Source: Pseudomonadota bacterium
GTDB lineage: Bacteria > Pseudomonadota > Alphaproteobacteria > Rhodobacterales > Rhodobacteraceae
Direction: 5' to 3'
Length of the DNA: 44,603 nt
Assembly (NCBI GenBank): GCA_039816075.1
Contig: JBCBYE010000001.1
Location: forward strand, 1-44,603
Shown here: piece after piece, positions 27,760 to 44,603 of the stretch
Numbering within the stretch: the stretch's first letter is position 1
Layout: each line of letters starts with the position of its first letter
The notes under the pieces: model-generated
The model's database searches: none
What the model was told of the DNA's origin: nothing
Seen by the model: the letters and a program-made list of their open reading frames with translations, nothing else
Translations under genes and position numbers: made by a program

Positions 27760-29036
27760 GCCGGCGCAAGCTGTTCGAGATCGATCTGCCGCCCGACCCC
27801 GAGGTGGACGAGACGGCGACGGACGAGACGGCGGCGGAGGCGGGCGGGCGCCCTGCCCCCGGGCTCGAAACCAAATCCGCAGGCTTCGGCGACGGCCGCG
27901 ACGCATCGACCCCCGACCGCGGAGCGTCCCCATCGACCCCCGGCCGCGGAGCGTCCATATCCGGGCCCGGCCGCGGGCCGTCCATATCAGGGCCCGGCCG
28001 CGGGCCCATGGCCTCCGCCGTGCGCGAAACCCTGCGCGCGCGCCTGACCCGCGCCGAGGACGAGGCCGCCGTCGCCGCGGAGAACCACGCCCTCGCCGAA
28101 GAGCTGCTGCGCCTGAAGGCCGAGGGCCTTTTCGCCGAACGCGTGCCCCTGGACCTGATCGACGAGACCCGCCTGACCCGCGACCGCCGCGCCCAGGCCG
28201 CGCCGGACGTGGAGGACCTCAAGACCTCGATCCGCGAGACGGGCCTGTCCAACCCCATCCGGGTGGAGCGGGCCGGCGCCCGATACGAGCTGATCCAGGG
28301 CTGGCGGCGCCTGCGCGCCTTCCGCGCCCTGCTGGCCGACACCGGCGCGGCGCAATGGGCGACGATCCCGGCCGCCGTGGAGCCCGAGGGCGGCGACCTG
28401 GAGCTCGCCTATCGCCGCATGGTCGACGAGAACCTGGTGCGCGAGGACATCTCCTTCGCCGAAATGGCCGAGCTGGCGCGCGCCTATGCCGATGATCCGC
28501 GCACCGGCGCCGACACGGCGGCCGAGGCGACGGGCGCGCTCTATCGCTCCGCCGGCGCGCAGAAGCGCAGCTACATCCGCGCCTTCGCCGAGCTGCTGGA
28601 GATGCTGGACGGCGCCCTGGCGCATCCGCAGGCCCTGCCCCGCAGCCTGGGCCTGGACCTGCGCCGCGTGCTGGCCGCCACGGGCCCCCAGGGCGCCGCG
28701 ACCCTGCGCCGGGGCCTGGAGAAGCGGCCCGAGCGCGACGCGGCCGAGGAGACGGCGTTCCTGCGCCGCTTCGTGACCACGGCGCTGGAGACCGTGGCGG
28801 ACATCGCCCGGCGCGGCGGCGCCGAGGACCCGTCGCGGATCGAGCCGCCGGCGGTTCCGCGCCTGGGCCGCCCCCCGGCGCCGGCGCTGGAGGTGCGGCT
28901 GGAGGGGTCGGGCCTGCGCGCGGTGCTCAAGGCCGGGCGGCTGGAGATGAGCGGGCTGGGCGCGGCGGCGGAGGACCTGGACGAGGCGCGCCTGCGCGCC
29001 GCGCTGGAGGCGTTCGAGAGAGCGCTGCGGGGCTAG
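27756..29036 (+). CDS. parB: ParB/RepB/Spo0J partition protein
   Basis: GGAGG RBS; LKTSIRETGLSNPIRV, YELIQGWRRLRA, MVDENLVREDISFAE. Confidence 0.9.
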   Translation: MSRRKLFEIDLPPDPEVDETATDETAAEAGGRPAPGLETKSAGFGDGRDASTPDRGASPSTPGRGASISGPGRGPSISGPGRGPMASAVRETLRARLTRAEDEAAVAAENHALAEELLRLKAEGLFAERVPLDLIDETRLTRDRRAQAAPDVEDLKTSIRETGLSNPIRVERAGARYELIQGWRRLRAFRALLADTGAAQWATIPAAVEPEGGDLELAYRRMVDENLVREDISFAEMAELARAYADDPRTGADTAAEATGALYRSAGAQKRSYIRAFAELLEMLDGALAHPQALPRSLGLDLRRVLAATGPQGAATLRRGLEKRPERDAAEETAFLRRFVTTALETVADIARRGGAEDPSRIEPPAVPRLGRPPAPALEVRLEGSGLRAVLKAGRLEMSGLGAAAEDLDEARLRAALEAFERALRG

Positions 29037-29201: not shown

Positions 29202-29924
29202 TCAGGCGGCGCGGCGGCGCCTGACCCAGCCGGCCAGGGCGAAGGCGCTCGCCGTCAGCACGATCCCCGCGGGGACGGGCATGGCATGGACCGAGACCAG
29301 ATCCTGCGCGTCCGGATCGTTGGCCTGGCCGTTCCACAGCGTGAGCTGGAACCGCTTGGGACCCGCATAGGCGGCGGCGTCGGCGAGATACCGGTTGGCC
29401 AGGGTCGAGACCTGCGCGCGGCCGGAGGTCATCTTGAAGAAGTCCGTGCCCGAGCCGGTCGTCACGTCGCCGTCGGTGTCGTAGACCGAGTCCCAGATCG
29501 CCGCCTGGAAGGCCGCCGATGCGTCGTGGTTCACCCCGGTTTCGAAGACAGCCGTGTCGTAGACCGCGTCGAACAGGGATTGCAGCCGCGCCAGCGCCGC
29601 GGTCGGGATCGGCGAGGGCGACGTCGCGTAGTCGATCGGGTTGGTCACCGGGGGCGTGCCGCCGGAGATGTAGTCGAACAGATCGATGCACCAGGCGACG
29701 AAGCTGTCGGTCGTGCCGTGATGGGACATGGTGAAGGCGCCGGCGCTGGCCCCGCCCGAGGCGCTTTCCCCCGGGGCCGGCCAGCCGGCGGCCGCCGACC
29801 AGCCGATGTTGCGGCGGCCATGGTCCTGCCCGTCGAAATCGAGCTGCACGGTGGTCGCGGCGGCGGCCGAGGCCGCCAGGCCCGCCGCGGCGAGCGCGGC
29901 GGCGAAGATGGATGCGTGTCGCAT
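29202..29924 (-). CDS. VPLPA-CTERM exosortase substrate with a thioester-domain-like core
   Basis: Ala-rich signal peptide; SFVAWCIDL, AAFQAAIWD, AQDLV; C-terminal MPVPAG + TM + RRRR. Confidence 0.85.
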   Translation of the reverse strand: MRHASIFAAALAAAGLAASAAAATTVQLDFDGQDHGRRNIGWSAAAGWPAPGESASGGASAGAFTMSHHGTTDSFVAWCIDLFDYISGGTPPVTNPIDYATSPSPIPTAALARLQSLFDAVYDTAVFETGVNHDASAAFQAAIWDSVYDTDGDVTTGSGTDFFKMTSGRAQVSTLANRYLADAAAYAGPKRFQLTLWNGQANDPDAQDLVSVHAMPVPAGIVLTASAFALAGWVRRRRAA

Positions 29925-30233: not shown

Positions 30234-30255
30234 CCCCGACGGCGGGGTTTTTTTT
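30234..30255 (+). terminator. Intrinsic terminator-like hairpin with U-tail on the + strand
   Basis: CCCCG-ACGG-CGGGG followed by T8; orientation opposite to both flanking genes. Confidence 0.4.
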
Positions 30256-31006
30256 ATGCGCCGCCCCGACGGCGGCGACGCACCAGCGCCGCCAGGCCGA
30301 AGCCGCCCAGCAACAGCATCGCGCCCGCGGGCAGGGGCATGGAGATCGCCACCAGGCTCTGCGTGTTGGAGGCGCGGCCGTCGTATTCCACCAGCTTCAC
30401 CGTGGGCGTCGGGCCGGCGAAGTCGCGCGCCAGGGCCAGATAGGCGTTGGCCTGCTTGCGCACCGCCCAGTGGTTCTGGGACTGCCAGCCGTCGCGGATC
30501 TTGAAGTAATCCGGCTCGGACGGGTCCGACACCTTCTTCCAGTGGAAGTCGCCCGCATCCCAGTCGTCGTCGTAGATCGCGTCCCAGATCGCCACCTGGA
30601 AGGCGGCGGTCTTGACCTGGCTGGCGAGCACCGCGTCCTCGTCGTAGGCGGCGGCGAAGAGCCGTTCGAGATCGCCGCGCTGTTCGGTCGTGAGCACGTT
30701 CTGCCGCACATAGGTGCGCGACGTCCCTTCCTGGTGCAGCGACGTGGCGATGTCGATGCACCAGGCGATGAAGGATTTGCCCGGATTGGTGCCGGTCACG
30801 CTGAAGGTGCCGGCATAGGCGTGGAAGTTCTGCGCCTCGCCCCCGGCGCGGGCCTGCACGCGCACGACGCGCGACCCCGCCTCGAACCCGTCGAAGGTGA
30901 GGTCGGTCGTCGTCGTGGCCAGAGCGGACCCGGCGCTCAGCGCCAGGGTCGTGCCGGCGGTCAGCGCCAGGGCGGCCGCGGCGGTCCATCGCGTAAGGGC
31001 GTGCAT
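30254..31006 (-). CDS. VPLPA-CTERM exosortase substrate with a thioester-domain-like core (paralog of 29202..29924)
   Basis: Signal peptide; SFIAWCIDI, AAFQVAIWD, TQSLV; C-terminal MPLPAG + TM + RRRRR; alternative start 31036. Confidence 0.87.
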   Translation of the reverse strand: MHALTRWTAAAALALTAGTTLALSAGSALATTTTDLTFDGFEAGSRVVRVQARAGGEAQNFHAYAGTFSVTGTNPGKSFIAWCIDIATSLHQEGTSRTYVRQNVLTTEQRGDLERLFAAAYDEDAVLASQVKTAAFQVAIWDAIYDDDWDAGDFHWKKVSDPSEPDYFKIRDGWQSQNHWAVRKQANAYLALARDFAGPTPTVKLVEYDGRASNTQSLVAISMPLPAGAMLLLGGFGLAALVRRRRRGGA

Positions 31007-31100
31007 GCTCGGATTTCCCCCATCCGTGCCTGACATCGAAAGCTACGCGACGATTCGAATACGCTGTAATCTCTTCTAGCGTGTATCAGGCGCGCGGGGG

Positions 31101-31193: not shown

Positions 31194-31284
31194 GATTTGA
31201 TGTGAGGGTCGCGTATTTCGCCCGCCGCATGTTTCCGGGGTCGCGTCGGTTGACCTCTTGAACGTTGCCCTTGGGGGTGCAGCC

Positions 31285-31914
31285 ATGAAATTCGCGACTT
31301 GGGCCGCTGCCGCGGTCCTTTCCATCGCCCCGTTCGCCGCGCAGGCGGTGACGACGACCGAGGTCGGCGACCTCGACTACACGACGAACGGTCACGCCCT
31401 GCAGCTGTGGGAGATGACCGACGGCACGGACACGGCGACCGCGTCCGGCACCGTGACGACGGACGGGATCACCTTCGATCCGTTCGTGCAGGTTCTGAAC
31501 GATCTCTCCAACGGATCTCTTCTGACGGGCGAGCTCATCACGGGTCCGGCCTCCACCACCGCCGGTTCGGTCAAGTTCAAGTTCCAGGCCGTGGGCTCGG
31601 GCCTGGTGGCGACCAACTTCTCGACCGAAAGCCCGCTGGCGGCGTGGACCGGTCTTGAGATCTCGTGGCTGGATTCGAGCATGAACGTGCTGAGCACGCT
31701 CGACTCGAACTTCAACAGCACGACGCTCTTCACCACCTTCGCCGAGGGCGACGAGCAGTTCCTCGTGGCCTCGTGGGACGGCTACACGAACAACGGCAGC
31801 AACCTGGATTTCCGGGTCGAAGCCGCCATCCCCGTGCCCGCCGGCGTCCTGCTGATCGGCACCGCGTTCCTCGCCGCCGGCGCCGCGCGCCGCTTCGGCC
31901 GCAAGGCGGCCTGA
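31285..31914 (+). CDS. VPLPA-CTERM exosortase substrate, Ser/Thr-rich, Cys-free
   Basis: Signal peptide ending AQA; C-terminal IPVPAG + TM + RRFGRK. Confidence 0.85.
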   Translation: MKFATWAAAAVLSIAPFAAQAVTTTEVGDLDYTTNGHALQLWEMTDGTDTATASGTVTTDGITFDPFVQVLNDLSNGSLLTGELITGPASTTAGSVKFKFQAVGSGLVATNFSTESPLAAWTGLEISWLDSSMNVLSTLDSNFNSTTLFTTFAEGDEQFLVASWDGYTNNGSNLDFRVEAAIPVPAGVLLIGTAFLAAGAARRFGRKAA

Positions 31915-32103: not shown

Positions 32104-32790
32104 ATGAACCGACAGGGCTTCGCCGAGACCTTGGACCTCGCCGCGCCGGCGCCCGCCGAGCGCGCCGAGCGCGATCTGGCCGCCGGCCTCTACGCCCGCC
32201 GCGGCAAGCGCGCGCTCGACACCGTCCTGATCCTGCTCGCCGCGCCCTTCGTGCTGCCGGTCGTCGCCCTGCTGGCGCTGCTGGTGGCGCTGGACGGCGG
32301 GCCGGCCTTCTACGGGCAGACGCGCCTGGGCAAGGGCGGCCGGCCCTTCACCTGCTGGAAGCTGCGCTCCATGGCCGTGGACGCCGACGCGCGCCTCGCC
32401 GCGCTGCTGGCCGAGGATCCCGCCGCCGCCGCCGAATGGGCCCGCAGCCAGAAGCTGAGCCGCGATCCGCGCATCACGCCCCTGGGCCGCCGGCTGCGCG
32501 CGGTCAGCTTCGACGAGCTGCCGCAGCTGTGGAACGTGCTGCGCGGCGAGATGGCCCTGGTGGGCCCGCGCCCCATGACGCCCGAGCAGGCGCCGATCTA
32601 TCCCGGCCGCGCCTATTTCGCGGTGCGCCCGGGGCTGACCGGGCCCTGGCAGGTCTCCGAACGTCACGAGAGCGCCTTCGCCGGCCGCGCCGGCTACGAC
32701 GCCGCCTATGTGCGCGACCTGTCCCTGGCCTCCGACATCCGCCTGCTGGCCCGCACCGTCGGCGTGGTCCTGCGCGGGCAGGGGGCCTGA
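32104..32790 (+). CDS. Priming sugar transferase (ExoY/WcaJ-type phosphoglycosyltransferase)
   Basis: KRALD, one TM, FTCWKLRSM, DPRITPLG, DELPQLWNVLRGEMALVGPRP, RPGLTGPWQV. Confidence 0.95.
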   Translation: MNRQGFAETLDLAAPAPAERAERDLAAGLYARRGKRALDTVLILLAAPFVLPVVALLALLVALDGGPAFYGQTRLGKGGRPFTCWKLRSMAVDADARLAALLAEDPAAAAEWARSQKLSRDPRITPLGRRLRAVSFDELPQLWNVLRGEMALVGPRPMTPEQAPIYPGRAYFAVRPGLTGPWQVSERHESAFAGRAGYDAAYVRDLSLASDIRLLARTVGVVLRGQGA

Positions 32791-33114
32791 GCGGGGGGGC
32801 GTCGGGCGTTCAAAACCCCAAGGCTTGCATGTGAACACCGCACCTTTACAGCGAGGCTATCCGAAATCGGTCAAAACGACTGGCCAAGGCTCCGGCTCGC
32901 TATGATCCGGGTCGGAAAGGCCGTCGAGACACGCTCGATCCGTAGATCCTCGCTCAGATAACTGGGTTCTTGCGGGTGTCCAGCTCATGTGGACCCACAA
33001 CAGAGCGTAGGCTATTGATATGTGCTGAATTCAAAATAATAACAATATCTTGTTGATCAGTATTATAGGAATCCACCCACATAATGAATGCTGCATTTTT
33101 CACTTTGAAATAAA

Positions 33115-34773
33115 CTAAAAATCTCTCAAGTATAATATCCAGTAAATGCCCCCCCTATAATATGAGAAATTCGTATCAATATAGGCCTCATACATTTCGA
33201 AAGTTGCCTCGCCACCCCTTGGGATCATCAAGAATCCTACGCCCTGAAACATTGCCCCTGGTTCTATGTATTGGGACTGGGTGAACGAGCGTCCCTCGTG
33301 CAGCCAGATCGGGGTTCCCGGCGGGGAGGGCTGGTTCAGCAGCATCGGGAAGGGATTGGCGAAGGCCAGCGTCGCCACGCGGCCGGCCCCCGGGTCTTGG
33401 GCGCCCGCGGCCCGCAACGCCTCGAGGCCGGCGAGAACGCCGGCGCGTCCGTCGGGAACCGAGTTCAGCAGGCCGGTCGGCTGCTCGATCAGATAGGGCT
33501 CGAATCTCAGATCGGCGTAAGGCGTTCCGGCGAAGGCAGGATCCGGACCGTTCAGACGATATTGCAGCCGCTGTCCGACATGCATGCCGATGTCGACGAT
33601 CGGATAGAAAGAAACGAACATGACGGCGCCCGAGACCAGAACGCGCGCCCGAGCATCGAAGGCGCGGTCGTTCGCCGCCGGGCCGCGCAGTCGGTTCGTC
33701 CATTCCAGCGCGACGAGCGGAACCAGCGGATAGACGGCCGCCTCGAACGCGTAGTGGTTCTGCATCAGGATCGCGCAGCCCGCGCCGGCCAGCAGCGACA
33801 TGAACGCGATCGGTCGTAGAAACTCCGCGGCCTCCGCCAGCCGCAGGGGCCGGGATGGAAAGCGCTCGACGGTCGCGAGATAGGCGATGGCCCCGATGAT
33901 GCCATAGAGCGCCATTTCGCCGAACTGCGCGAACAGCTTTCTCAGCCGCAATCCGTTCGCGGGCATCTGCGCGGTCGTGGCGAGATCCTTGAAATAGGCC
34001 GACACCTGCCCCGTGCCGGCCTCGAAAACGCCGAGGGTGGCGATGAACGCGACTATGATGAACAGGCTGTCGCGCCGGGACTCGGAGATCAACACGAAGC
34101 GTGCGCCTGCCAAGCCCAGCGCCGCAGCGCCGTACGTGACCTTGAGCATGAGCAAAAGCGCTATGGCGAGGCCCAAGACCAGATCGGCCCAGGGATCGCG
34201 GCGATGGGGAAGAACCAGCCGCAGCGCGACGGGGATGAAAAGCGCCCAGGCCCAGCGGTTGTAGGGCGCGAGGAAATGCATGGCCGCGTCGCTCAGCACT
34301 TCGCCGTTGCCGCGCCCGGACACGGCGACGGTCGCCACCGAGAGCAGAACGATGGAGAGCCCCAGCAGGCTCATCTGCCGTCGGAGCATGATCACGGTGA
34401 GCAGGAGCGCCAGAAGCCCGGCGAGGGCGCCGGCATGCATGACGGTCGAGGCCGTCGGCGTGCTGTCGAGCGCCGCCGCCAAGCCGTAGACATGGTAATA
34501 GACCGGCCCGATCGGACTGAAGAAGTCCACGCTTGAAAGCAGACCATGCCGGGCCTTGTTCAGAGCCTCCGTGGCGGTCCAGAAATCTCCGAAGTAACCA
34601 TCGTGGTTGAAATAAATGCCCTCGGCGAGCCCGGCCAGGCAGAGCGCTGCCGCGGCTCCGACAAGATTGAGCGCCGCCATGTTGGCGAAGTACCGACCTG
34701 GCGTCGAAAACGTTATGAAGGCTGCGGCAATGATGAACGCCGTGGCCGTCAGATAGACGGCGAGCATCATCAT
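33115..34773 (-). CDS. Polytopic membrane protein, probable GT-C (lipid-phosphate-sugar-dependent) glycosyltransferase
   Basis: About 11 or more hydrophobic segments; first loop GD...G...VDFFSPIGP resembles GT-C loop 1; last gene of an operon starting with GtrA and a DPM-like GT2. Confidence 0.55.
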   Translation of the reverse strand: MMMLAVYLTATAFIIAAAFITFSTPGRYFANMAALNLVGAAAALCLAGLAEGIYFNHDGYFGDFWTATEALNKARHGLLSSVDFFSPIGPVYYHVYGLAAALDSTPTASTVMHAGALAGLLALLLTVIMLRRQMSLLGLSIVLLSVATVAVSGRGNGEVLSDAAMHFLAPYNRWAWALFIPVALRLVLPHRRDPWADLVLGLAIALLLMLKVTYGAAALGLAGARFVLISESRRDSLFIIVAFIATLGVFEAGTGQVSAYFKDLATTAQMPANGLRLRKLFAQFGEMALYGIIGAIAYLATVERFPSRPLRLAEAAEFLRPIAFMSLLAGAGCAILMQNHYAFEAAVYPLVPLVALEWTNRLRGPAANDRAFDARARVLVSGAVMFVSFYPIVDIGMHVGQRLQYRLNGPDPAFAGTPYADLRFEPYLIEQPTGLLNSVPDGRAGVLAGLEALRAAGAQDPGAGRVATLAFANPFPMLLNQPSPPGTPIWLHEGRSFTQSQYIEPGAMFQGVGFLMIPRGGEATFEMYEAYIDTNFSYYRGGIYWILYLRDF

Positions 34774-35537
34774 GGGGGATATCCCAAGGCGAGGCGGCGC
34801 GCAGCCTCGGGAGGATCGGCGATGAACGCATCGACCTGATCCGGCGTGCCCAGCATGCCTACATCGTCCAGCCGCACCTGGGAGATGCGGACCGTCGCGC
34901 CGTCGGCGATCAGCTGGTTGTAGAGCGGGGCCACGTAGCGCTCTCCCTTTTCCTCGCGGCCGGCCACGCCGTAATAGGCGTGATAGGCCTCCACGTAGCG
35001 GCGGGCGCTGTCGAACCAGTAAAGCCCGACCGTCGCATGATCCGAAATCCGGCGCTTTTCGCGCAGTTCGACGACGTCGCCGCGCGCGTCGAGCCGGGCG
35101 AAGGACCAGCCGTCGCCTGGGGCCGGAAAGCAGGGAATCCAGCCGGCGCAGTCCTGGGGAGAGGGCGGCGCCATCGCCCGCGGGGCGACGAAGGTGTCGA
35201 TGTTGTAGATCGCGAACGGCGCGTCCTGCGGCGCGGACCGGGCCAGCAGAAGCGCGGTCGTCGCCTGCCCGTCGGTCATCTCCTCGATCGTCGCGACCTC
35301 GGCCTCGGCGATGCCGAGCGCGCCGAGCCGCGTGGGGATGTAGTCCGTCGCCCCAAGCTCGCCCCGCACGGCGAAGGCGAAGCGCCAGCCGGCGGCGCGG
35401 AACGCCTCGAGGCTCAGCATCGACCAGTCGAACAGCGGCCTGCCGAGCGCGTCGACCTCGTATTTCGGCCTGTCGTATCCGGCCTTGGCGAAACGGCTGC
35501 CGAGGCCGGCCATGGTGATCGCGAGCGTGCCGCTCAT
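34770..35537 (-). CDS. Nucleotidyltransferase-like protein (BcbE/BcbG/Kfo-type capsule gene)
   Basis: ITMAGLGSRF..AGY..PK, TDGQATT, IYNIDT, EKRRIS.HATVGLYWF, LGTP; ATGA overlap with upstream gene. Confidence 0.8.
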   Translation of the reverse strand: MSGTLAITMAGLGSRFAKAGYDRPKYEVDALGRPLFDWSMLSLEAFRAAGWRFAFAVRGELGATDYIPTRLGALGIAEAEVATIEEMTDGQATTALLLARSAPQDAPFAIYNIDTFVAPRAMAPPSPQDCAGWIPCFPAPGDGWSFARLDARGDVVELREKRRISDHATVGLYWFDSARRYVEAYHAYYGVAGREEKGERYVAPLYNQLIADGATVRISQVRLDDVGMLGTPDQVDAFIADPPEAARRLALGYPP

Positions 35538-35971
35538 GGACGATCGTCCTCGCGCTTGCGGCCGGTCTCGGCCGTCTTGGCCAGGCGGTCGCGTTCGACC
35601 AAGGCGTTCAGCGCGTCGAAATCGAGCTCCACGAACTCCCGAGGCCGCACGGCGCGGTCGTCGATGTAGAAGCCCTGACGGCCCGGCCAGGGCTTGGCCA
35701 GATGAAGCTCGTCGAACGGAACGTCGTGCTCCGCGAGCCATCGCAGCATGTCCGGCGCGACATGCTTGCCGATCCGCCCGACATTGCCCTCGTTGCTGCG
35801 CATGCCGCGGGCCGAGTGGAGAATGATCCGCCAGCCTTCGGCGTGCAGCGCGCGCAGCTTGGCGAGCATCCGCGGTTCGGGCGGCATGTCGGCATAGCGC
35901 TCGCCCGGCCGTTTGATCGGGCACAGCGTGCCGTCGACGTCGACGACGAGGGCCTTCTCTTCTTCAATCAT
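35534..35971 (-). CDS. HAD-IIIC phosphatase, EcbF/BcbF capsule-biosynthesis family
   Basis: VVDVDGTLC, ILHSARGM, VPFDELHLAKPW, FYIDDRAVRP. Confidence 0.88.
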   Translation of the reverse strand: MIEEEKALVVDVDGTLCPIKRPGERYADMPPEPRMLAKLRALHAEGWRIILHSARGMRSNEGNVGRIGKHVAPDMLRWLAEHDVPFDELHLAKPWPGRQGFYIDDRAVRPREFVELDFDALNALVERDRLAKTAETGRKREDDRP

Positions 35972-37430
35972 CGATCCCCTCCAGCTCTTCGATGATGTCC
36001 CGCGCGATGAGGGCGAAGCCCAGCAGCTTTCCCTGATGGTCCAGATGCAGCGGCAGCATGGACAGGAACAGCGACGCCTCCACGGCGCGGACATGGCGAT
36101 AGCGCCAGCCCTCCGCCTCGAGGCGGTCGCGGAACCTGCGCTTCATCCAGTCGGGCGCTCCGCCCCGATGGAGCCGCGCCTCGAGCGCGAGGTCGGCGTC
36201 GACTTCGATGGAGAACAAGCCGTTGTTCACGAAGTCGTAGCCGCCGCAGATGGAGTGCGAGAACTTGGCGATGTCGTAGAGCGGATGCATCAGCCCCTCC
36301 TCCCGCCGCGTCGCCCCGCGGGGGTCGATGAGGCGCATGAGGCCGATCCGCCGGTCGAAGAGAATGTTCGAAAGGCAGGGATCGCCGTGGCTGAAGGCCA
36401 GATGATCGGCGCCGTGATCGGCGAGGGCCCTGTCGATCAGCGGCGCCGCGCGGCGCCTGAGGCCGGCCAGCCCTTCGTCGATGGCCCCGGCCGCCAGATA
36501 GGCGTCGACGCGCCGCCCGACCTCGGCGTCCGCGAAGCGCTCCAGACGATCGTTCATCTTCCGCAGGATCTGTTCGCGACCGCGCTCCAGCACGGCCGGG
36601 GCGTCGAGCGGTTCGCGCGCGCGCGTCGCGGCGTAGGCGAAGAACTGGTCGAGCAGCTGATCGAAATGCGCCTCCGAGAAGGCGCCTAGCACGAACTGAA
36701 GCGCGGCGTCGGGAACCCTCAGGTTCTCCATCCTGTAGGACGCGTCGTCCGGGCCTTCCTCGTAGCCGAAGGTCGGCAGAAGGAACCGGCGCATCGCCGG
36801 AGGCGCCAGCTCGAAGAAGTCATGCTCGGCACGCATCTTGGCGATGTCGGTCGAGCTTTTGACGAAGACGTCGCCATCCGCCGAGAGGCTGTTGAAGGCC
36901 CGCGTTTCCGTCGCGCCCGCCAGAAAGCGTCGAAGCGATCCGGCCTGACGCAGATCGACGAATTCCAGCTGATGGGACGTGCGGGCCGCTTCGCCGGCGA
37001 GCTGCAGCATGAAGGAGCGCTTGTCCCTGGCCGAGCGCATCGACAGCAGCGCGGCGGCATCGGCCGGGAACAGCACGGTCGGCGCCTCGTCCTCGAAGAC
37101 CGGTCCGAGGAGCATCGGCCGCAGCGCGTAGCGCATCTTGCGGATCAGGAAGCCGAGCTGCTCCATGTCGAGCGGCGCCGCGACCACGGGAAGCCGAAGC
37201 CAAAGGGTGTCGCCGCGCGCCGCTTCCATCCGCGCGACGACATGGTCCGCATCCTGGTCGGTGCGCAGCACCATGGTTTCGTCGGCGCCGGCGGCCGCGG
37301 CGAGCAGTTCGTCGAGATAGCGGCGCCGGCGGCGAAGCAGGTCGCCGAAATGGACGTCGCCGATCAAGCGTTCGAGCTCCGCCGGAGGCGGTTCCCGATC
37401 GTCGATGACGGCGAACAGCTGGGGTCTCAT
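35964..37430 (-). CDS. APH/choline-kinase-fold phosphotransferase (capsular biosynthesis kinase)
   Basis: TRAFNSL, K..AE, Brenner motif HGDPCLSNIL, LIDPRG, YDIAKFSHS, LFLSMLPLH; ATGA-coupled. Confidence 0.8.
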   Translation of the reverse strand: MRPQLFAVIDDREPPPAELERLIGDVHFGDLLRRRRRYLDELLAAAAGADETMVLRTDQDADHVVARMEAARGDTLWLRLPVVAAPLDMEQLGFLIRKMRYALRPMLLGPVFEDEAPTVLFPADAAALLSMRSARDKRSFMLQLAGEAARTSHQLEFVDLRQAGSLRRFLAGATETRAFNSLSADGDVFVKSSTDIAKMRAEHDFFELAPPAMRRFLLPTFGYEEGPDDASYRMENLRVPDAALQFVLGAFSEAHFDQLLDQFFAYAATRAREPLDAPAVLERGREQILRKMNDRLERFADAEVGRRVDAYLAAGAIDEGLAGLRRRAAPLIDRALADHGADHLAFSHGDPCLSNILFDRRIGLMRLIDPRGATRREEGLMHPLYDIAKFSHSICGGYDFVNNGLFSIEVDADLALEARLHRGGAPDWMKRRFRDRLEAEGWRYRHVRAVEASLFLSMLPLHLDHQGKLLGFALIARDIIEELEGIDD

Positions 37431-38401
37431 GAGGCGACCGAGCGCATCGCATGCGCCGTTGCGGGAACGCGCCGCGGCTCGTGGCGACGCCGCGCCAGAT
37501 AGACCATCGCCACGACCGGCCATGGCAGCATCACCACGACGGTGGACACCGCCAGCGCGGCGCGCAGCAGCGGGTCGTCGCCCATGTTCCACCAGGATGC
37601 GGACAGGCGGGACCCGAGCAGATCGAACGCCTCGGCCATTTCGGCGAACACGCCCGCCGCCGTGCCGTTCACCAGCATCAGGCAGGCCAGAAGCTCGCAC
37701 GACCACACCAGAAACGAGATGACGCACAATTCAGGGGCCCGCTTGCCGGCCACATGGGCGGCGTGCGTGACGACCACGCGGACGGCATCGATGTGGCGCA
37801 AGACCTCCAGGACGCGCGGATTGTTGTGCGTGGCGACGATGTAGTGCTGCAGCTCCGTGAGAATGCGCGGACCGACGACGACGATGGTCAGGGGCACGAC
37901 CGCGGCGAACAGGGTGAACGCCGCCAGCATGGCGGGCGCGCTGTCCAGCGACAGCAGGATCACAAGCAGCGGCACGAGAAAGATCGCATCGAACATGCGG
38001 TCGATGAGCAGCATGGCCGCCGCGTAGACCGCCGCGCCGCTCAGTCTCCAAAGCTCGTGAAGCCGCAGCAGTTCGCCGGACTTGAACGGCAGAACCAGCG
38101 CGATCGGCGCCGTGGCCAGATGCATCAGCGCGGCGGTGCGGCCGGACACGCCCAGCAGATCGATGGACAGCAGCGCCAGGCGGACGGCGCGCAGACCATG
38201 GCTCGTCAAGTACAGAAGGCCGGCCGACAGGATCGCGATCCACGGCAGATCCTGCAGGAACGGGCGCAGAAGGGCGAAGACCAGGCCGGTCGCCGCGAGA
38301 AGCAGCGCGAAGGCTGCTGCACGCGCCCAGGACGCGCGCGCCCGTCGCCGCAGGTCGGAGCCGACGGCCTGCGCCGCGCCCGAAGGCCGCCTGGCCGTCA
38401 T
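37427..38401 (-). CDS. Lysylphosphatidylglycerol-synthase TM domain / flippase-like membrane protein
   Basis: LRAVRL, LPFKSGELLR, LIDRMFD motifs; multiple TMs; ATGA-coupled to upstream GT2. Confidence 0.7.
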   Translation of the reverse strand: MTARRPSGAAQAVGSDLRRRARASWARAAAFALLLAATGLVFALLRPFLQDLPWIAILSAGLLYLTSHGLRAVRLALLSIDLLGVSGRTAALMHLATAPIALVLPFKSGELLRLHELWRLSGAAVYAAAMLLIDRMFDAIFLVPLLVILLSLDSAPAMLAAFTLFAAVVPLTIVVVGPRILTELQHYIVATHNNPRVLEVLRHIDAVRVVVTHAAHVAGKRAPELCVISFLVWSCELLACLMLVNGTAAGVFAEMAEAFDLLGSRLSASWWNMGDDPLLRAALAVSTVVVMLPWPVVAMVYLARRRHEPRRVPATAHAMRSVAS

Positions 38402-39192
38402 GGGTCCCATCGCGCAATCACGGTCGACGGGTAGGCCGTGCGCGGCGTCGCGCGGTGATCTTCCTCGAAGAAGCGCCGCTGGTTCGCGATCCGCCTCCAG
38501 AGCAGCCGCAAAAGCTGAAAGCCCATGCGCCCCAGCTTGGCGTTGGAGATCTGGTCTTCTTCACGCCATGTGAGCGGAAAAAACTTCAAAGAGGCGTTCC
38601 GGGCGGCAACAGCCAATATCAGATAGTAGTTGAAGGTGAGATCATCAGAAAATTTACGGTGAAACCCGTCGTTGAATGCTGATACCCTGAACATGTTCAA
38701 ACCTGATCCAAGGTCGTAAAGGCGCTTTTTTGATATTGCAGAAAAAATGACGTTGAACACTCTGTTCGCCATCGTCCTGACAAAAGAATATCCTTTCAGC
38801 TTCGACCCCTTCATGAAACGGGCGCCCATCAAGAAGTCAAACTTTTCATGATCGCCCGCTTCGATCCGCGGCAGCAGGTCTTCGATCGATCCCTGGTCGT
38901 CGCCATGCAGGACGACGAGATGGTCGAAGCCTGCATCGCGGGCGAAGTCTATCGCCACCTTGTGAGACCCGCCCAATCCGTAATTGTCATCGTTCCTGAG
39001 AAGCGCTCGGACGGGAATCCGCACCGATGGAAGGGACGCGCGCGCCGCATCGCGCGTGGCATCCGTCGAGCCGTTGTCGATGCATATGATGCCGTCGAAG
39101 AAACGCGCGATATCCGCATCTTCGAAACTTCGAAGAACCCGGACGATCTGCGTTTCACAGTTATACATCGGAATGAAAACCAATATCGACAT
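38398..39192 (-). CDS. GT2, polyprenol-phosphate glycosyltransferase-like (GtrB/DPM1-like)
   Basis: FIPMYN, IDNGSTDAT, NYGLGG, LHGDDQ, GARF, YDLGSG. Confidence 0.85.
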   Translation of the reverse strand: MSILVFIPMYNCETQIVRVLRSFEDADIARFFDGIICIDNGSTDATRDAARASLPSVRIPVRALLRNDDNYGLGGSHKVAIDFARDAGFDHLVVLHGDDQGSIEDLLPRIEAGDHEKFDFLMGARFMKGSKLKGYSFVRTMANRVFNVIFSAISKKRLYDLGSGLNMFRVSAFNDGFHRKFSDDLTFNYYLILAVAARNASLKFFPLTWREEDQISNAKLGRMGFQLLRLLWRRIANQRRFFEEDHRATPRTAYPSTVIARWDP

Positions 39193-39200
39193 TCTGAACC

Positions 39201-39668
39201 TTACCTCGCCTCATTTCGAGTCTTGGGCGGCATCGCCGCCAAACCTTTCATGAAGAAAAAATTGGCGATGAGGCTGATCGGCGCGATCAGAAGCTTCGCG
39301 ACGGCGACCGCCATGGATCTCACCTCCGCCGCCGCGATGTCGAGCAGGTCGGCGACCGCGGAAAACACGGCGACCCGTCCTTCGGTCATCATGCGGGAGA
39401 GGAACGCAACCGCTGCTGCGGCGACCAGAATGGAAAACACCTGCCAGATCAGATATTTTAAATAATTACCTGCATATTTTGCGTACTGACTGTCGCTGAA
39501 TATAAAATACGACATGAAGTATACGAATGTCACGCCTGTCAACGATCCCATCCAGCTTGCGGCGAAGAAACCTGCGCCCAGATAGGCCGCAGCGGCCGAA
39601 GCCGATACATCCAGAAGCAAGCCCAGCCCCGATATGGCGGCGAACCTTATGAATTTTTCGGACACCAT
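39201..39668 (-). CDS. GtrA-family small flippase
   Basis: KFIRFAAISGLGLLLD, four TMs, AKLL....ANFF. Confidence 0.8.
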   Translation of the reverse strand: MVSEKFIRFAAISGLGLLLDVSASAAAAYLGAGFFAASWMGSLTGVTFVYFMSYFIFSDSQYAKYAGNYLKYLIWQVFSILVAAAAVAFLSRMMTEGRVAVFSAVADLLDIAAAEVRSMAVAVAKLLIAPISLIANFFFMKGLAAMPPKTRNEAR

Positions 39669-39835
39669 TCTATATCTTCACGAAATGACATCCGACATCC
39701 GCCGGGTCGTCCCGCGGCGTTCGATACGTTCGGCGTCGAGCGTGCGGCTTGCCATGACGCATTCCACCATTCTGCATAGTGAGACTCGCTGGCCGGCACC
39801 CTGCGCTTTCCCATACGCCATCAAGGATGTTTTTG

Positions 39836-39850
39836 TGAACTTGCGCTGAA
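39836..39850. promoter_or_regulatory. CtrA-like box in the divergent gtrA / exosortase promoter
   Basis: TGAA-CTTGCGC-TGAA. Confidence 0.4.
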
Positions 39851-40034
39851 AGAACCCCGCCTGCGACACCGCTTTCTTCGCCTTGCGCGTCCGTTGCGAC
39901 ACGTTCGGCAGGCAGGCATGGCCGCCGCGGAGGGCGCGGCGGGACATAGCTTCGTGAACGGGCCGGATGGCGCTTGATCGGCGGTTCCGGCTTGCAGTAT
40001 TCGTTCAGCATAGATTCTTGGGGGAAGCTTTCCG

Positions 40035-41630
40035 ATGACACAGCGCACGATGCCTATGCCCTTCGCCGCCGGCCTCGCCGGGCTCGGCTGGGGGCCCGCG
40101 CTGCTGATCGCGGCGGCGCTCGCCGCGGTCGGGCTGTTCCATGACGGCGCCGCGGCGCTGCTCGCCGCCTGGGCGACGCCGGAATACACCCATGGGCCCG
40201 TCATCCCGCTGCTCTCGGCCTATCTCTTCGCCCATCAGCTCAAGGCCTGGCCGCCGCGGCCCGGGCCCGTGGCGGATCGCTGGCCGGGGGTCGCGGTCGT
40301 CGGGCTGTCGCTGCTCTTCGCCGTCGCGGGCACCTGGACGGGCGTGCCGGACATCATCGCCTACGGGCTGATCGTCTGGATCGCCGGCGTGATCCTGATC
40401 AGCTTCGGCTGGGAGCGGGGGCGCCATTTCTGGCCCGCCGTGGTGCATCTGGTGTTCATGCTGCCCCTGCCGGGCTTCATCCACTACCACGTGACGTCCG
40501 AGCTGCAGCTGTTCAGCTCCTGGGTGGGGGTCGAGATGATCCGCATGGCCGGGGTGCCGGTGCTGCTTGACGGCAACATCATCGATCTGGGCGCGTTCAA
40601 GCTGGCCGTGGCGGAGGCGTGCTCGGGCCTGCGCTATCTCTTCCCGATCATGTCCTTCTCCTACGTCTTCGCCACGCTCTACAAGGGGCCGAACTGGCAG
40701 AAGGCGGTGCTGCTGCTGTCCGCGGCGCCGATCACCGTGGCCATGAACACCGTGCGCATCGCCATCATCGGCGTGATGGTGGACCGCTTCGGGATCTCCC
40801 ACGCGGAGGGGCTGAGCCACTTCCTCGAAGGCTGGGTGATCTTTCTGACCTGCGTGATCCTGCTGTTCCTTCTGGCCTGGGCGATGCTGAAGCTGCAGCG
40901 TTCGCCCATGAGCCTGGCCGAGGCGATGGACATGGACCTGTCGGGCCTGGGCCCGCAGGCGGCGCGCCTGAAGCTGGTGCGGCCCTCGGGCGCGCTGGCG
41001 GCGGGCACGGTCGCGACGGCGGTCGCCGCGCTGTTCCTGGCAGCGGCGCCGGAGCGGGCGGTGATCAAGCCCGAGCGCGAGCCCCTGGCCCTGTTCCCGC
41101 GGGTGATCGACGACTGGCGCGGCGGGCTGCCGGAGATCCTGGAGCCGGCGGTGCAGCGGTCGCTGGGCGCCTACGACTACCTGCTGACCGACTTCGCGTC
41201 GGCCGAGGAGGCGGCGTCGGTGAACCTGCTGGTGGTCTATTACGAGGACCAGAAGGACGGCACGTTCCATTCGCCCGAGGTCTGCATTCCGGCGGGCGGC
41301 TGGGAGATCGCCAAGATCGAGACCGTGGACATGGCCGGGACCCTGGGCCTGGAGGGCGCGTTCACGGTCAACCGGGCGGTGATTCAGAAAGGCGTAAGCC
41401 GTCAGCTGGTGTACTTCTGGTTCGACGCGTCCGGGGTGCGGACGGCGTCGGGCATGGAGGCCAAGGCGTGGATGACCTGGCAGCGCATGACGATCGGCCG
41501 TCCCGACGGCGCGCTGGTGCGCCTGGTGACGCCGATCCTGCCGGACGAGGGCGAGGCCGGCGCCGAGGCGCGCCTGCAGCGCAAGCTGGCCGGCGTGGCG
41601 GGGGTTCTGCCGCGGTTCGTGCCGGAGTGA
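40035..41630 (+). CDS. xrtD: Exosortase D (VPLPA-CTERM-specific) with C-terminal EpsI domain
   Basis: PEYTHG, DGNIIDLG, VAEACSGLRY (catalytic Cys), N.VR, HFLEGW; EpsI motifs HSPEVC and RPDGALVR; VPLPA-CTERM genes nearby. Confidence 0.93.
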   Translation: MTQRTMPMPFAAGLAGLGWGPALLIAAALAAVGLFHDGAAALLAAWATPEYTHGPVIPLLSAYLFAHQLKAWPPRPGPVADRWPGVAVVGLSLLFAVAGTWTGVPDIIAYGLIVWIAGVILISFGWERGRHFWPAVVHLVFMLPLPGFIHYHVTSELQLFSSWVGVEMIRMAGVPVLLDGNIIDLGAFKLAVAEACSGLRYLFPIMSFSYVFATLYKGPNWQKAVLLLSAAPITVAMNTVRIAIIGVMVDRFGISHAEGLSHFLEGWVIFLTCVILLFLLAWAMLKLQRSPMSLAEAMDMDLSGLGPQAARLKLVRPSGALAAGTVATAVAALFLAAAPERAVIKPEREPLALFPRVIDDWRGGLPEILEPAVQRSLGAYDYLLTDFASAEEAASVNLLVVYYEDQKDGTFHSPEVCIPAGGWEIAKIETVDMAGTLGLEGAFTVNRAVIQKGVSRQLVYFWFDASGVRTASGMEAKAWMTWQRMTIGRPDGALVRLVTPILPDEGEAGAEARLQRKLAGVAGVLPRFVPE

Positions 41631-41922
41631 GGGGGCGGGGCGGCTGAGCCGTCCGACGCGCCCAAGGCGGCCCCTTGATCTTCGGAGCGGCGCGGGCGTG
41701 CCGCTGAAACCGCTCCGACGATCTGCGCGCGGCCGCTGAAAATCGTCGCGCAGGTTTTGCAGGCGCTGCAATCCAAGTCCTCCGACCGGTCCGCACCGAG
41801 CCGCCTTGACGACAAGAGGCGGCCCGGATGCGCGTCGAGGCCAAACGATGCATCCGAACGCGGCGATGCGGCGGACGAAGCGGCTTGATCTGGATCCGCG
41901 GTCGAGCGGTGCGACGCCCGGC

Positions 41923-43719
41923 CTAGGCCGCCTTGCCCTGCACCATGCGCTGGAAGACGTCGCTGCGCTCCAGCAGCTCGGCATAGGTTCCGCGGGCCGA
42001 GACCTGGCCGTTCTCCAGCACGAAGATCTCGTCGCAGCCTTCCACGGTGGTGAGCCGGTGGGCGATCATGATCACCGTCTTGTCGCCGCCGAGGCGGTTG
42101 ACCGCCTCCATCACCGCGCGCTCGGTGACGTTGTCGAGGGCGGAAGTCGCCTCGTCGAAGACCAGCACGTCGGGATCGCGGTAGAGCGCCCGGGCGATGC
42201 CGATGCGCTGGCGCTGGCCGCCGGACAGGCGCACGCCGCGGTCGCCCACATAGGTGTCGTAGCCGTCGGGCAGCTCCTCGGCGACGAAGCGGTGAAGCTC
42301 GGCCATGCGGGCGGCGCGCTCGACCGCCTTCATGTCGATCTCGTCCTTGGGCAGGCCGAAGGCGATGTTGGCGGCGACGCTGTCGTCGGCGAGGAAGATC
42401 TGCTGCGGCACGTAGCCGATGGAGCGGCGCCAGGCGCTGCGCTCCTCCTCGGTGAGGATCGGGCGGCCATCGACGACGAGGGCGCCCTGCTGCGGCTCCA
42501 GCAGGCCCATGAGGACGTCGATGGCGGTGGTCTTGCCGGCGCCGGTGCCGCCGACGATGCCGATGGAGGCGCGGGCGGGGATCTCGAGGCTTAGGCCGTT
42601 CAGGGCGGGGCGCTCGGCGGCCGGATAGCCATAGACGACGGCGTCGAGGGCGAGGCGGGACTGCAGGCCCAGGGGCGGGCCAGGCGGAAGCGGAGCGGGC
42701 GGAGCCGAGGTCACGTCGGCATGGAGCGCTTCGAGGGCGGGGCGGCCGAAGCGCATCTCGGCGAGGGCGCGGTAGACCTCCTGCAGGGCCGGGGCGAGGC
42801 GCGAGCCGGCGAGCGCGTAGACGCCGGCGATGGGGAGAATGCTGCCGAGCGCGCCGTCGTTGAGGACGGCGAGCGCCAGCACCACCGCCATCATGCCGCC
42901 GAAGGCCAGCGCCTCGAGCAGATGCTTGGGAACCTGGCTGATGACGGCGTTCATGGCGCTGGCCTCCGCCACCCGCAGGGCCGGATCGGCGAAGCGGCGC
43001 GACATGCCGTCTTCGAGGCCCAGCACCTTGACCTCCTTGATGCCGCCGAGACCTTCCTGCGCGGTCTGGTAACGATCCCGATCAGCCCTCGCTCGGGCGC
43101 CGCCGAGTTCGGCCAGCGCGCGGCGCACGCCCAGGAAGACGAGCGCGTAACCTCCGCCGAGAACCAGAGCCGACAGCAGCGCGATGACCGGATCGATCAC
43201 GATCAAAAGCGCGACGAGGAAGAGGACTAAGACGCCGTTGGATAGCGCACCCAGCAGGGGCGTGAGCACGGTATTCACCGTCTGCGCCACCTCATTAAGC
43301 ACGTTCTTGGACAGATCGGCGCTGTGGCGGTTCAGGAACCAGGCATAGGGTTGAGCCAGGTAGCCGTCGAAGACCTTCCGCGCCAGCGAGGCGTGGCGCA
43401 TCTGGGCGAAGCGCAAAAGGGCGTAGGTGGCGCCGGCCTTGAAAGCCAGTCCGCCCACATAGGCGATCACGGCGAAGACGCCCAGAAGGAGCAGGAATCC
43501 GAGCGGGGTCTCGGATCCGCTCAGCCCGTAGGCCCAGGAAAGCCAGGCGTTGCGCTCGACGATGCCGGGGTCGGAGAGGACCGCCAGGAACGGCATCACC
43601 GACGCGACGCCGAGCATGTTCACCAGGCCCATCAGCACCAGCAGGACCATCAGCAGCCAGAAGCGGCGGCGCTCGCGGGCGTCCAGCAGGTCCATCAGCT
43701 TGCGGTAGGCGTCCAGCAT
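41923..43719 (-). CDS. ABC exporter (TMD+NBD), PglK/WlaB-like glycan flippase
   Basis: TM domain; Walker A GGTGAGKT, YVPQ, LSGGQRQRIGIARA, VFDEATSALD, IAHR; no adjacent membrane-fusion protein. Confidence 0.85.
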   Translation of the reverse strand: MLDAYRKLMDLLDARERRRFWLLMVLLVLMGLVNMLGVASVMPFLAVLSDPGIVERNAWLSWAYGLSGSETPLGFLLLLGVFAVIAYVGGLAFKAGATYALLRFAQMRHASLARKVFDGYLAQPYAWFLNRHSADLSKNVLNEVAQTVNTVLTPLLGALSNGVLVLFLVALLIVIDPVIALLSALVLGGGYALVFLGVRRALAELGGARARADRDRYQTAQEGLGGIKEVKVLGLEDGMSRRFADPALRVAEASAMNAVISQVPKHLLEALAFGGMMAVVLALAVLNDGALGSILPIAGVYALAGSRLAPALQEVYRALAEMRFGRPALEALHADVTSAPPAPLPPGPPLGLQSRLALDAVVYGYPAAERPALNGLSLEIPARASIGIVGGTGAGKTTAIDVLMGLLEPQQGALVVDGRPILTEEERSAWRRSIGYVPQQIFLADDSVAANIAFGLPKDEIDMKAVERAARMAELHRFVAEELPDGYDTYVGDRGVRLSGGQRQRIGIARALYRDPDVLVFDEATSALDNVTERAVMEAVNRLGGDKTVIMIAHRLTTVEGCDEIFVLENGQVSARGTYAELLERSDVFQRMVQGKAA

Positions 43720-43837
43720 CACGGGCGTTCCTGCGCAGGGCCGCGGTGCGGCGGCGTCGCGTCTGGGTCTAGGCCCGAGGCGTAAAGGTCGGATTGCCGG
43801 GCCGCATCGCCGCGGGCCGGCGCCGACGTGGAGCCGG

Positions 43838-44419
43838 TCATGCGCGGTCCGCCCGGGCGGCGGCGTCCGGCAGCTCGACCAGGGCGGGCGAGGGGGCGGC
43901 GATGTCCGTCGCGCGCGGGGCGGCGATCACCGCATGCTCGGGCGCGTCGCGGGTCAGCACTGCATTGGCGCCGATCATGGCGTGAGCCCCGACCTCGACC
44001 GGGCCCAGGACCCTTGCGCCGGCGCCGATGTCCACGTGGCCGCCGATCCTCGGCGCGCCCTGGCGGTTGCGGGTCGTGCCGATCGTGACCTGCTGGAAGA
44101 TCAGGCAGTTGGGGCCGATCTCCGCCGCGGGGTGGATCACCACGCCGTTGGGGTGGGGGAGGAGGAGGCCTCCGCCGATGCGGGCGTTGGTGGGGATGTC
44201 GGCCTGGGTCACCACGCTCCAGAACCGGTGCTGCAGCGTCCACCAGCGGCGCATCAGCGGGGCCCAGGGGCGCGGCGAGGCGTTCCACGCCTGCCAGCGG
44301 CGGATGCTGCGCAGCAGGCGGCGCGACGGGTCCCACCCGCGGCGGGGAACCTCCCGCGACCAGTCGGGCACGGTCGCGGAGATCTGCGGGGCCCCGCCCT
44401 CAGTCGCTGCCGTAGCCAT
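43838..44419 (-). CDS. Hexapeptide-repeat O-acetyltransferase (CysE/WcaB-like)
   Basis: IGGGLLLPHPNGVVIHP..IGPNC.IFQQVTIG, PRIGGHVDIGAGARVLG, IGANAV. Confidence 0.9.
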   Translation of the reverse strand: MATAATEGGAPQISATVPDWSREVPRRGWDPSRRLLRSIRRWQAWNASPRPWAPLMRRWWTLQHRFWSVVTQADIPTNARIGGGLLLPHPNGVVIHPAAEIGPNCLIFQQVTIGTTRNRQGAPRIGGHVDIGAGARVLGPVEVGAHAMIGANAVLTRDAPEHAVIAAPRATDIAAPSPALVELPDAAARADRA

Positions 44420-44603
44420 AGCCGTAGTAGCGCCTGGGCATGAAGGCGCTCTTGTTCAGGACCACGCCGAGATCCGACGTCAGGGAGGTCAGCTGGCGGG
44501 CGCAGAGGTCGATTTCGGCGAGGGGGGTCTCGCCGGCGGCGGCGACCAGGAGGCCGCCGTCCACATGCTCCAGAAACGCCGAGGCGTCGTCGGAGGCCAG
44601 CAG
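44400..44603 (-). CDS. Second copy of the CpsD/CapB tyrosine kinase, 3' end only (runs off the window)
   Basis: 203/204 nt identical to 301..504. Confidence 0.9.
   Translation of the reverse strand: MLASDDASAFLEHVDGGLLVAAAGETPLAEIDLCARQLTSLTSDLGVVLNKSAFMPRRYYGYGYGSD

Follow-up and report, generated by a model that had tools for sequence, protein, structure and literature searches.

The locus described here raises the question of which sugar it activates and by what route that sugar reaches the cell surface. The window, that is, the entire 44.6-kb (44,603-nucleotide) contig JBCBYE010000001.1 of a marine member of the Rhodobacteraceae (assembly GCA_039816075.1), carries a cassette of seven intact open reading frames on the minus strand, running from position 39668 to 33115. 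In this order, the predicted products are a GtrA-like small membrane protein, a GT2 glycosyltransferase (GT), a flippase-like protein of family PF03706, a sugar kinase, an HAD phosphatase, a nucleotidyltransferase and a GT-C-fold glycosyltransferase. Judged from its sequence, the cassette has the features of a three-component glycosylation system. It cannot be equated with a canonical GtrB system or with a plain Kfo/Bcb trio, as it was found to lack defining features of each. On balance, we consider it likely that a trio of enzymes makes an activated sugar, likely fructose, which is loaded onto polyprenyl phosphate, flipped and transferred in the periplasm. A lipid-linked three-component architecture is very probable, a ketofuranose is probably the donor, and fructose is slightly favored as that ketofuranose. 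The best reading of all the loci compared is that one nucleotide-activated ketofuranose is used directly in capsule loci and by way of a polyprenyl-phosphate carrier in the clade of the window.

In the proposed route, the kinase would phosphorylate the anomeric C2 of fructose 6-phosphate to the 2,6-bisphosphate, the HAD phosphatase would remove the 6-phosphate and the nucleotidyltransferase would make a nucleoside diphosphate (NDP)-fructofuranose, the last two steps being conceivable in either order. The GT2 enzyme would load the nucleotide-activated ketofuranose (likely fructose) onto undecaprenyl phosphate, the PF03706 and GtrA proteins would flip the lipid-linked sugar, and the GT-C-fold enzyme would attach it, on the periplasmic side, to a surface polymer. 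The succession of anomeric kinase, phosphatase and nucleotidyltransferase is proposed because of its analogy with the heptose activation route HddA/GmhB/HddC and with AmgK and MtnK, which are anomeric kinases of the APH fold.

The preliminary description of this DNA had recognized seven co-oriented, mostly overlapping genes divergent from exosortase D, and this anatomy was confirmed. A gap of 8 nt separates the GtrA and GT2 genes, the following junctions overlap by 4, 4, 8, 4 and 4 nt (five of the six junctions), and the gene divergent from the first cassette gene, xrtD, matched TIGR04152 with 593 bits against a cut-off of 400. In sequencing run X1, possibly the origin of this DNA, a single contig spans positions 32510–42214 with zero differences to the window, and in run X3 a contig spans 32520–36550 with 35 substitutions and no gaps; a misassembly therefore looks unlikely. 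The sequencing data carrying the locus are marine metagenomes from one study. Cores of six or five genes in the same order were found in loci L001–L006 and in dozens of further loci, so the gene order is not a product of chance. A scan of the locus for promoters and terminators gave signals no better than chance. The Pfam search of the window proteins returned no match for the GtrA, PF03706, kinase, nucleotidyltransferase and GT-C candidates, and the identities of proteins of this kind were set through homologs, the atlas, the PDB and folding.

The probable donor trio and its partner genes

The putative donor route is encoded by an APH/choline-kinase-fold sugar kinase gene (35964–37430, 488 amino acids, aa), an EcbF/BcbF/KfoI-like HAD phosphatase gene (35534–35971, 145 aa) and a KfoH-like sugar-phosphate nucleotidyltransferase gene (34770–35537, 255 aa), all on the minus strand. 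Protein comparisons identified the three as homologs of the fructosylation genes of Escherichia coli K4 and of the corresponding trio of the O92 (fructan) locus. The K4 region (L013) was taken as such because of its chondroitin synthase (PDB 2Z86), and its kinase gene is interrupted by an insertion sequence in that strain. Identity to the K4 genes was 26% for the kinase (residues 156–484, homologous to the C-terminal domain of KfoE; E 4e-21 with the C-terminal piece of kfoE), 35% for the HAD phosphatase and 32% for the nucleotidyltransferase (E 4e-45), the latter two K4 genes being, as we take it, kfoI and kfoH. The relationship with Kfo proteins suggested earlier thus holds for KfoE, KfoI and KfoH, with the active-site residues kept, but not for KfoD, which is not a member of the trio.

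Residues K191, E202, H348-G349-D350, N355 and D369 of the kinase are invariant in 50 homologs and supply the ATP-binding Lys, the helix-C Glu, the HGDxxxxN motif and the second Asp of APH/choline kinases; 32 conserved sites are common to the window-type and Kfo-type kinases. Sequence and profile searches of the PDB with the kinase gave no significant match (the profile matches were weak, E 0.28), and APH and NTP_transferase families occur among its atlas neighbors. By its features the kinase also resembles a cluster of 547 proteins that combine NTP_transferase and APH, 72% of them viral, and phages may carry a related sugar-activation enzyme. The HAD protein matched TIGR01689 (EcbF-BcbF) with 122 bits (E 1e-35), below the curated cut-off of 162, and its residues D11, D13, K93, D104 and D105 are conserved in both clades. 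The nucleotidyltransferase matched PDB 4EVW, a nucleoside-diphosphate-sugar pyrophosphorylase (E 3e-39). Its residues R15, K25 and D114 are conserved in both clades, and all 32 sites at least 90% conserved in 19 Kfo-type sequences are also kept in 55 window-type sequences, none being Kfo-specific.

BcbE, BcbF and BcbG of Pasteurella multocida are presumably the equivalents of the trio, as the TIGR01689 match, though below its cut-off, suggests; no Pasteurella-named sequence occurred among the 120 matches listed. Deletion of kfoE removes fructose, and KfoE is called a fructosyltransferase in reviews. Similarly, bcbE and bcbG mutants lose fructose, and no bcbF mutant was obtainable (PMC13552107). 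The trio occurs together with WavE in an O92-family locus (L126), and the O92 antigen is called a fructan in the title of a work cited by PMC7685785. A single-gene fructose route of Campylobacter jejuni HS1.08 was considered and set aside without a sequence comparison. The wav genes of Vibrio cholerae are reportedly linked to core fructose.

The neighborhood of the kinase gene was surveyed in 116 stretches (L001–L015, L025–L124 and the window), L016–L024 being left out as shorter copies. Three weak kinase matches were dropped. The kinase profile score served to sort the remaining loci into groups, redundancy was removed at 90% identity, and loci with enough flank were retained. A score of at least 290 defined the window type (93 loci in 68 clusters, 37 with 4.5 kb on each side), and the Kfo type comprised 20 loci in 19 clusters, 17 with 2 kb on each side. 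Window-type sequences served as seeds of the metagenome scan, the flank limits differ between the types, and the partner profiles were grown from window proteins, so that distant forms could be missed.

In the window type (n = 37) the nucleotidyltransferase was present in 37, PF03706 in 36, the GT2 family in 35, HAD in 34 and GtrA in 27. A large non-transporter membrane protein was encoded within 4.5 kb in 35, the GT-C family of the window in 7 and a KfoD/WavE-like protein in 1. In the Kfo type (n = 17) the nucleotidyltransferase was found in 17 and HAD in 16, whereas PF03706, GT2 and GtrA were found in 0. A KfoD/WavE-like gene was present in 12 of these 17 (7 of 12 when the five seed loci are left aside), and a large membrane protein in 6, corresponding to Wzx and Wzy in the annotated E. 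coli loci. The counts are not independent, because the loci are related and the two types are two clades. A KfoD/WavE-like gene and the lipid module thus occur as alternatives, in an either/or pattern, KfoD being the gene that the lipid route replaces; the window itself has no KfoD/WavE-like neighbor. KfoD-like and WavE proteins are weakly linked (hhalign 77%), and we infer that they are the true transferases of capsule and O-antigen loci. If both steps of the lipid route are inverting, it would yield the opposite anomer to that of a KfoD/WavE reaction in one step. In three loci (L111, L114 and L115) the nucleotidyltransferase is fused to a KfoD-like domain in proteins of 669–803 aa, an arrangement that fits donor synthesis feeding a transferase.

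Some loci depart from this pattern. In L109 the kinase domain is nested in the window clade on a long branch, and the locus has no N-terminal kinase domain, no lipid module and two KfoD-like genes. In L032 and L035 the lipid module is accompanied by a convergent HAD gene whose product is closer to the Kfo type (median identity 55–57% vs 47%, with weak tree support).

The probable lipid carrier module and terminal transferase

The GT2 gene (38398–39192, minus strand, 264 aa; PF00535, E 1e-13) had been described as DPM-like, and its sequence relations agree with a polyprenyl-phosphate type, the best PDB matches being the Dol-P-Man synthase 5MLZ and ArnC. In 43 homologs R125, R139 and N143 are invariant and R210 is nearly so. 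They align with R117, R131, S135 and R202 of PfDPMS, R210 having been placed by eye outside the printed alignment. The first three PfDPMS residues are named as dolichol-phosphate contacts and R202 belongs to the dolichol-phosphate/donor contact set (PMC12690121). The DxD motif, described in the same article as conserved throughout the polyprenyl-phosphate GT family, is replaced by H96-G97-D98, which is invariant in the 43 homologs. Moreover, the protein stops after its GT-A domain and has no hydrophobic C-terminal helices that could serve as its own membrane anchor. The enzyme thus likely works like a polyprenyl-phosphate GT but forms a separate subfamily.

Two candidate flippase genes are predicted in the unit. 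The GtrA-like protein (39201–39668, minus strand, 155 aa), assigned through its homologs as a predicted flippase or accessory protein, is 33–36% identical to the product of the first gene of L002–L005, and 22 of 23 scanned homologs matched PF04138 (GtrA_DPMS_TM), 21 of them above the gathering score. The second protein (37427–38401, minus strand, 324 aa), of family PF03706 (LPG_synthase_TM, MprF/AglD flippase-like), is a predicted flippase and a predicted membrane anchor of the kinase. It had an atlas feature score of 0.96 and TM values of 0.64/0.79 to PF03706 clusters, and 10 of its 15 scanned homologs matched this family; a PDB sequence search returned nothing significant. The kinase gene is immediately preceded by the PF03706 gene in 36 of 36 loci, and the two are fused in three proteins (P0096, P0108 and P0115). 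PF03706 proteins are predicted flippases, and the domain is fused to a GT2 in AglD (PMC5898192). The membrane partners proposed earlier, GtrA and a flippase-like protein, were therefore both recovered, but the most constant of them is PF03706 (36/37) and not GtrA (27/37). In two cassettes (L034, 4543–7035; L053, 4560–7049) a large membrane protein is fused to a C-terminal GtrA domain.

The product of the last gene (33115–34773, minus strand, 552 aa) matched neither Pfam nor NCBIfam and belongs to a family without a Pfam model. A model made from the single sequence was unusable (pLDDT 39), and the AlphaFold model used here was based on an alignment of 150 rows (pLDDT 96.7, pTM 0.95). With this model, ranks 1–20 of the Foldseek search were all GT-C enzymes (best E 2e-4), and VIA-align superposed it on ArnT (Z 10.2, root mean square deviation 5.4 over 379 residues), AftA (Z 9.9) and AglB (Z 9.5). 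Since such Z values are modest for a helical protein, it is the agreement across the list of matches that argues for GT-C. Residue D63, in the first outer loop after the second predicted helix, is kept in 148 of 150 homologs. This makes it the candidate for the catalytic acid, as GT-C enzymes have their catalytic Asp in that loop (PMC11127046). According to the modeled fold, the last gene is that of a GT-C-fold glycosyltransferase, as the preliminary description had supposed. The family profile, built from 34 homologs, has matches in 1466 clusters (50% identity); in many distant members the alignment begins only at position 24–60.

The large membrane proteins of the surveyed cassettes fall into 19 BLAST families, and their genes vary in position and strand as well. 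Among the 68 scanned, a few matched GT87 (weakly), PMT_2, GtrII or YfhO, several were transporters or acyltransferases and most matched nothing. Nine families were compared by profile and only f7 and f8 were linked; the others may still be GT-C. A fixed GT2 combined with a swapped terminal enzyme corresponds to the pattern of Gtr systems. In locus L127, genes for HAD-UbiA, a flavin adenine dinucleotide (FAD)-oxidase and a short-chain dehydrogenase/reductase (SDR) are immediately followed by a gene of the window's GT-C family. This is the make-up of a lipid-linked pentofuranose donor route; together, L109, L032/L035 and L127 tie the two routes to one donor class. A HAD-UbiA fusion, a mark of the lipid-linked pentofuranose route, was also seen near a window-type cassette (L080, 13137–14567).

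Weighing of the sugar and of other explanations

A number of observations weigh against fructose and the lipid-linked route. Of the 37 window-type cassettes, 3 lack HAD and 10 lack GtrA, and a quick tree needs just two partner changes, so that the either/or pattern stands for about two events and not 54. The enzymes are just 26–35% identical to fructose-linked ones, and the window clade is a separate long branch. The N-terminal domain of the kinase has no profile match to that of KfoE (residues 1–150, hhalign probability 0.4% locally and 0.03% globally), KfoE-type N-termini matching the nucleotidyltransferase family instead (85%), and 9 conserved kinase sites are Kfo-specific and 20 specific to the window clade. 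Given the low identity, the separate branch and the type-specific kinase sites, the sugar may differ from fructose. In the GT2, the invariant His takes the place of the first Asp of DxD, the base proposed for ArnC (PMC12690121). The fold was computed for the window's own large-membrane family alone, and most of the other 18 families match neither Pfam nor, by profile, the window's GT-C family. Of the four trio-less members of that family that were examined, three (L128–L130) have no clear donor genes directly adjoining. The trio is also present inside the O-antigen clusters of E. coli O78 (L014, 5798–11728, again with WavE) and O20/O137 (L015, 8854–11566), and fructose is absent from the main text of an O-antigen review, in which the O20 structure is said not to fit the O20 locus (PMC7685785). 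An acid-labile ketose branch may have been overlooked in the O78 and O20/O137 structures.

The same lipid-linked architecture could instead carry another sugar, such as xylulose, ribulose, sorbose or a non-ketose furanose. The separate clade with its kinase identity of 26%, conserved sites peculiar to it and an N-terminal domain of another kind would suit this explanation, as would the pentofuranose donor set found with the window's GT-C family in L127 and the occurrence of xylulose in E. coli O95 and O97, for which there are no known donor genes (PMC7685785). We nevertheless regard it as unlikely. The nucleotidyltransferase loses no Kfo-specific site, HAD proteins appear to have been exchanged between the clades and no epimerase or dehydrogenase is fixed in the cassette, as judged from loci read by eye.

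A second explanation would have KfoE-like proteins as fructosyltransferases and KfoH-like proteins as GT2 transferases, with no new nucleotide sugar and with phosphorylation of a lipid- or glycan-bound sugar at the membrane. Reviews indeed name KfoE a fructosyltransferase, KfoH homologs bear the RefSeq label 'glycosyltransferase family 2', the kinase is associated with a membrane protein and in some cases fused to it, and the second acidic metal ligand, usual near the C-terminus of nucleotidyltransferases, is not evident. However, the KfoE label rests on a knockout phenotype, and the protein has an intact set of kinase motifs. In the KfoH family the N-terminal Arg and Lys typical of pyrophosphorylases are retained, and the solved member, 4EVW, was deposited as such an enzyme. 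KfoD/WavE-like genes, moreover, occur just where the lipid module is missing. All of this makes the explanation improbable. More improbable still is a free glycolipid or compatible solute made by GpgS/GpgP-like chemistry, with the GT-C protein as an unrelated passenger: the GT2 weakly matches glucosyl-3-phosphoglycerate synthase (GpgS), PF03706 flips modified phospholipids in MprF and the large membrane gene is of changing family, position and strand, but polyprenyl-phosphate GTs outscore GpgS, GtrA (27/37) and a large non-transporter membrane protein (35/37) accompany the cassette, the GT-C gene of the window overlaps the preceding nucleotidyltransferase gene by 4 nt, and Gtr systems, too, pair a constant GT2 with a variable GT-C (PMC11127046).

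The lipid-linked ketofuranose route therefore remains the preferred reading. Its most specific form is put forward tentatively: an APH-fold kinase would make fructose 2,6-bisphosphate as a biosynthetic intermediate on the way to NDP-fructofuranose and, in a widespread clade, to an undecaprenyl-phosphate-linked ketose, many unrelated GT-C families would perform the transfer in the periplasm, KfoE would be a kinase, and KfoD/WavE proteins would be ketosyltransferases. The preliminary description had not recognized the gene combination as characterized, and the literature searched, most subscription journals being outside reach, likewise described neither the combination nor a lipid-linked ketose, nor any NDP-fructose route in bacteria. 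The activated fructose donor of bacterial capsules and O antigens is not identified in the accessible literature, and the cassette offers a concrete three-enzyme route to it. If true, this route would reassign KfoE as a kinase, KfoH as a nucleotidyltransferase and KfoD/WavE as transferases, and it would be an undescribed way of placing a ketose on the cell surface. The K4 capsule is an industrial source of chondroitin, from which the fructose must be removed. Ketose branches are acid-labile and could have gone unseen in the glycan structures of cassette carriers. The cassette neighborhoods point to up to 19 families of candidate GT-C enzymes. Finally, a lipid-linked ketose would be a new donor class, the donors of three-component systems so far being glucose, galactose and pentofuranoses (PMC11127046).

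Acceptor, genomic setting and comparison with known systems

A link with exosortase D and VPLPA-CTERM proteins had been proposed from the position of the cassette. About 50 VPLPA-CTERM tails (51 motif matches) occur across the genome, which also encodes a second exosortase D, on contig C818. However, xrtD was found near the cassette in the window and L032 alone among the 116 stretches (2/37 with long flanks). With an adjacency that is not conserved, glycosylation of VPLPA-CTERM proteins as a general function was rejected. The window and L032 both have the cassette in an exopolysaccharide cluster and both carry the window's GT-C family, while elsewhere the cassette sits among housekeeping genes. 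The acceptor probably follows the GT-C family. For the window, the exopolysaccharide of the same contig is a possible acceptor, put forward with some reserve, and is considered the likeliest, followed by lipopolysaccharide and then by VPLPA-CTERM proteins.

The exopolysaccharide cluster occupies positions 301–22079 and 41923–44419 and includes genes for a CpsD-like protein, several GT2/GT4 enzymes, a Wzy_C-domain protein, a sulfotransferase, a methyltransferase, a PglK/HepA-like ATP-binding cassette exporter and an EpsC-like acetyltransferase. Two of the proteins encoded in this region contain RTX calcium-binding repeats: that at 5750–8866, of low G+C, reads as a secreted glycan-active protein, and that at 8815–10914 has a weak H-type lectin match. 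A WbaP-like transferase is encoded at 32104–32790, and VPLPA-CTERM-type proteins at 29202–29924, 30254–31036 and 31258–31914, one of them with a weak thioester-domain match (E 0.007).

The contig encodes a RepA-type initiator (24454–25689) and a ParB domain (27657–29036), and its ends overlap: positions 293–504 equal 44392–44603 at 99%, and 1–217 resemble 43517–43733 at 94%. Because of these features, it is probably a circular plasmid with an imperfect junction that carries an exopolysaccharide cluster. Around the partition genes (~26700–27700), many copies of a short repeat translate as SPRG or FPRGE and are likely parS sites or iterons. The G+C content of the cassette is 65%, compared with 72% for the genome, and that of its first two genes is 55%; this lower, uneven G+C indicates that the cassette looks acquired and mosaic.

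Among 401 genomes in the samples from the class, order and phylum, respectively, 8, 10 and 16 (own genome included) had a kinase match of either type; the full-length window type turned up in a further 1, 3 and 2. Carriers known by name include Roseivivax (R. jejudonensis CECT 8625 in L004), Roseovarius, Yoonia, Roseibium, Asaia, Komagataeibacter and Euzebya, and the G+C of carrier loci ranges from 22 to 71%. The cassette is thus patchy and mobile in its distribution. In L035, an apparent transfer RNA gene just before the start of the cassette (~6256–6564, read by eye) is a possible integration site.

Among known systems, HddA/GmhB/HddC and AmgK/MurU follow the same logic of anomeric kinase, HAD phosphatase and nucleotidyltransferase as the trio; they differ in their substrates, HddA has the GHMP fold, and neither feeds a lipid carrier. 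The GtrABC systems of Salmonella and Shigella O-antigen glucosylation resemble the cassette in their GT2, GtrA-family protein and variable GT-C, with a conserved GT2 and an interchangeable terminal transferase (PMC11127046). By contrast, they use uridine diphosphate (UDP)-glucose, while the window cassette brings its own three-enzyme donor route, a GT2 with HGD for DxD and no transmembrane anchor, and an extra PF03706 protein that is more constant than GtrA. The pentofuranose route of Citrobacter youngae O1/O2, with GT136, shares with the proposed route a cytoplasmic lipid-linked furanose that is flipped and a GT-C whose first outer loop holds a conserved Asp (PMC11127046); the terms 'fructo', 'xylulose' and 'ketose' are absent from the passages of that article searched. 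This route starts from phosphoribosyl pyrophosphate (PRPP) with a UbiA-type synthase and a MATE flippase, whereas kinase, HAD, nucleotidyltransferase and GT2 are found in the window. The kfoE/kfoI/kfoH genes of K4 and, presumably, the bcbE/F/G genes of P. multocida (PMC13552107) are alike in their trio, K4 with the identities given above and active-site residues in common. Unlike the window, Kfo-type loci have a KfoD/WavE-like gene and no lipid module, and the nucleotidyltransferase-like N-terminal domain of KfoE is unmatched by the window kinase. Finally, AglD of Haloferax combines a polyprenyl-phosphate GT2 with a PF03706 domain, a predicted flippase (PMC5898192), as does the cassette; in the window the two are separate genes, and the fusions observed join PF03706 to the kinase rather than to the GT2.

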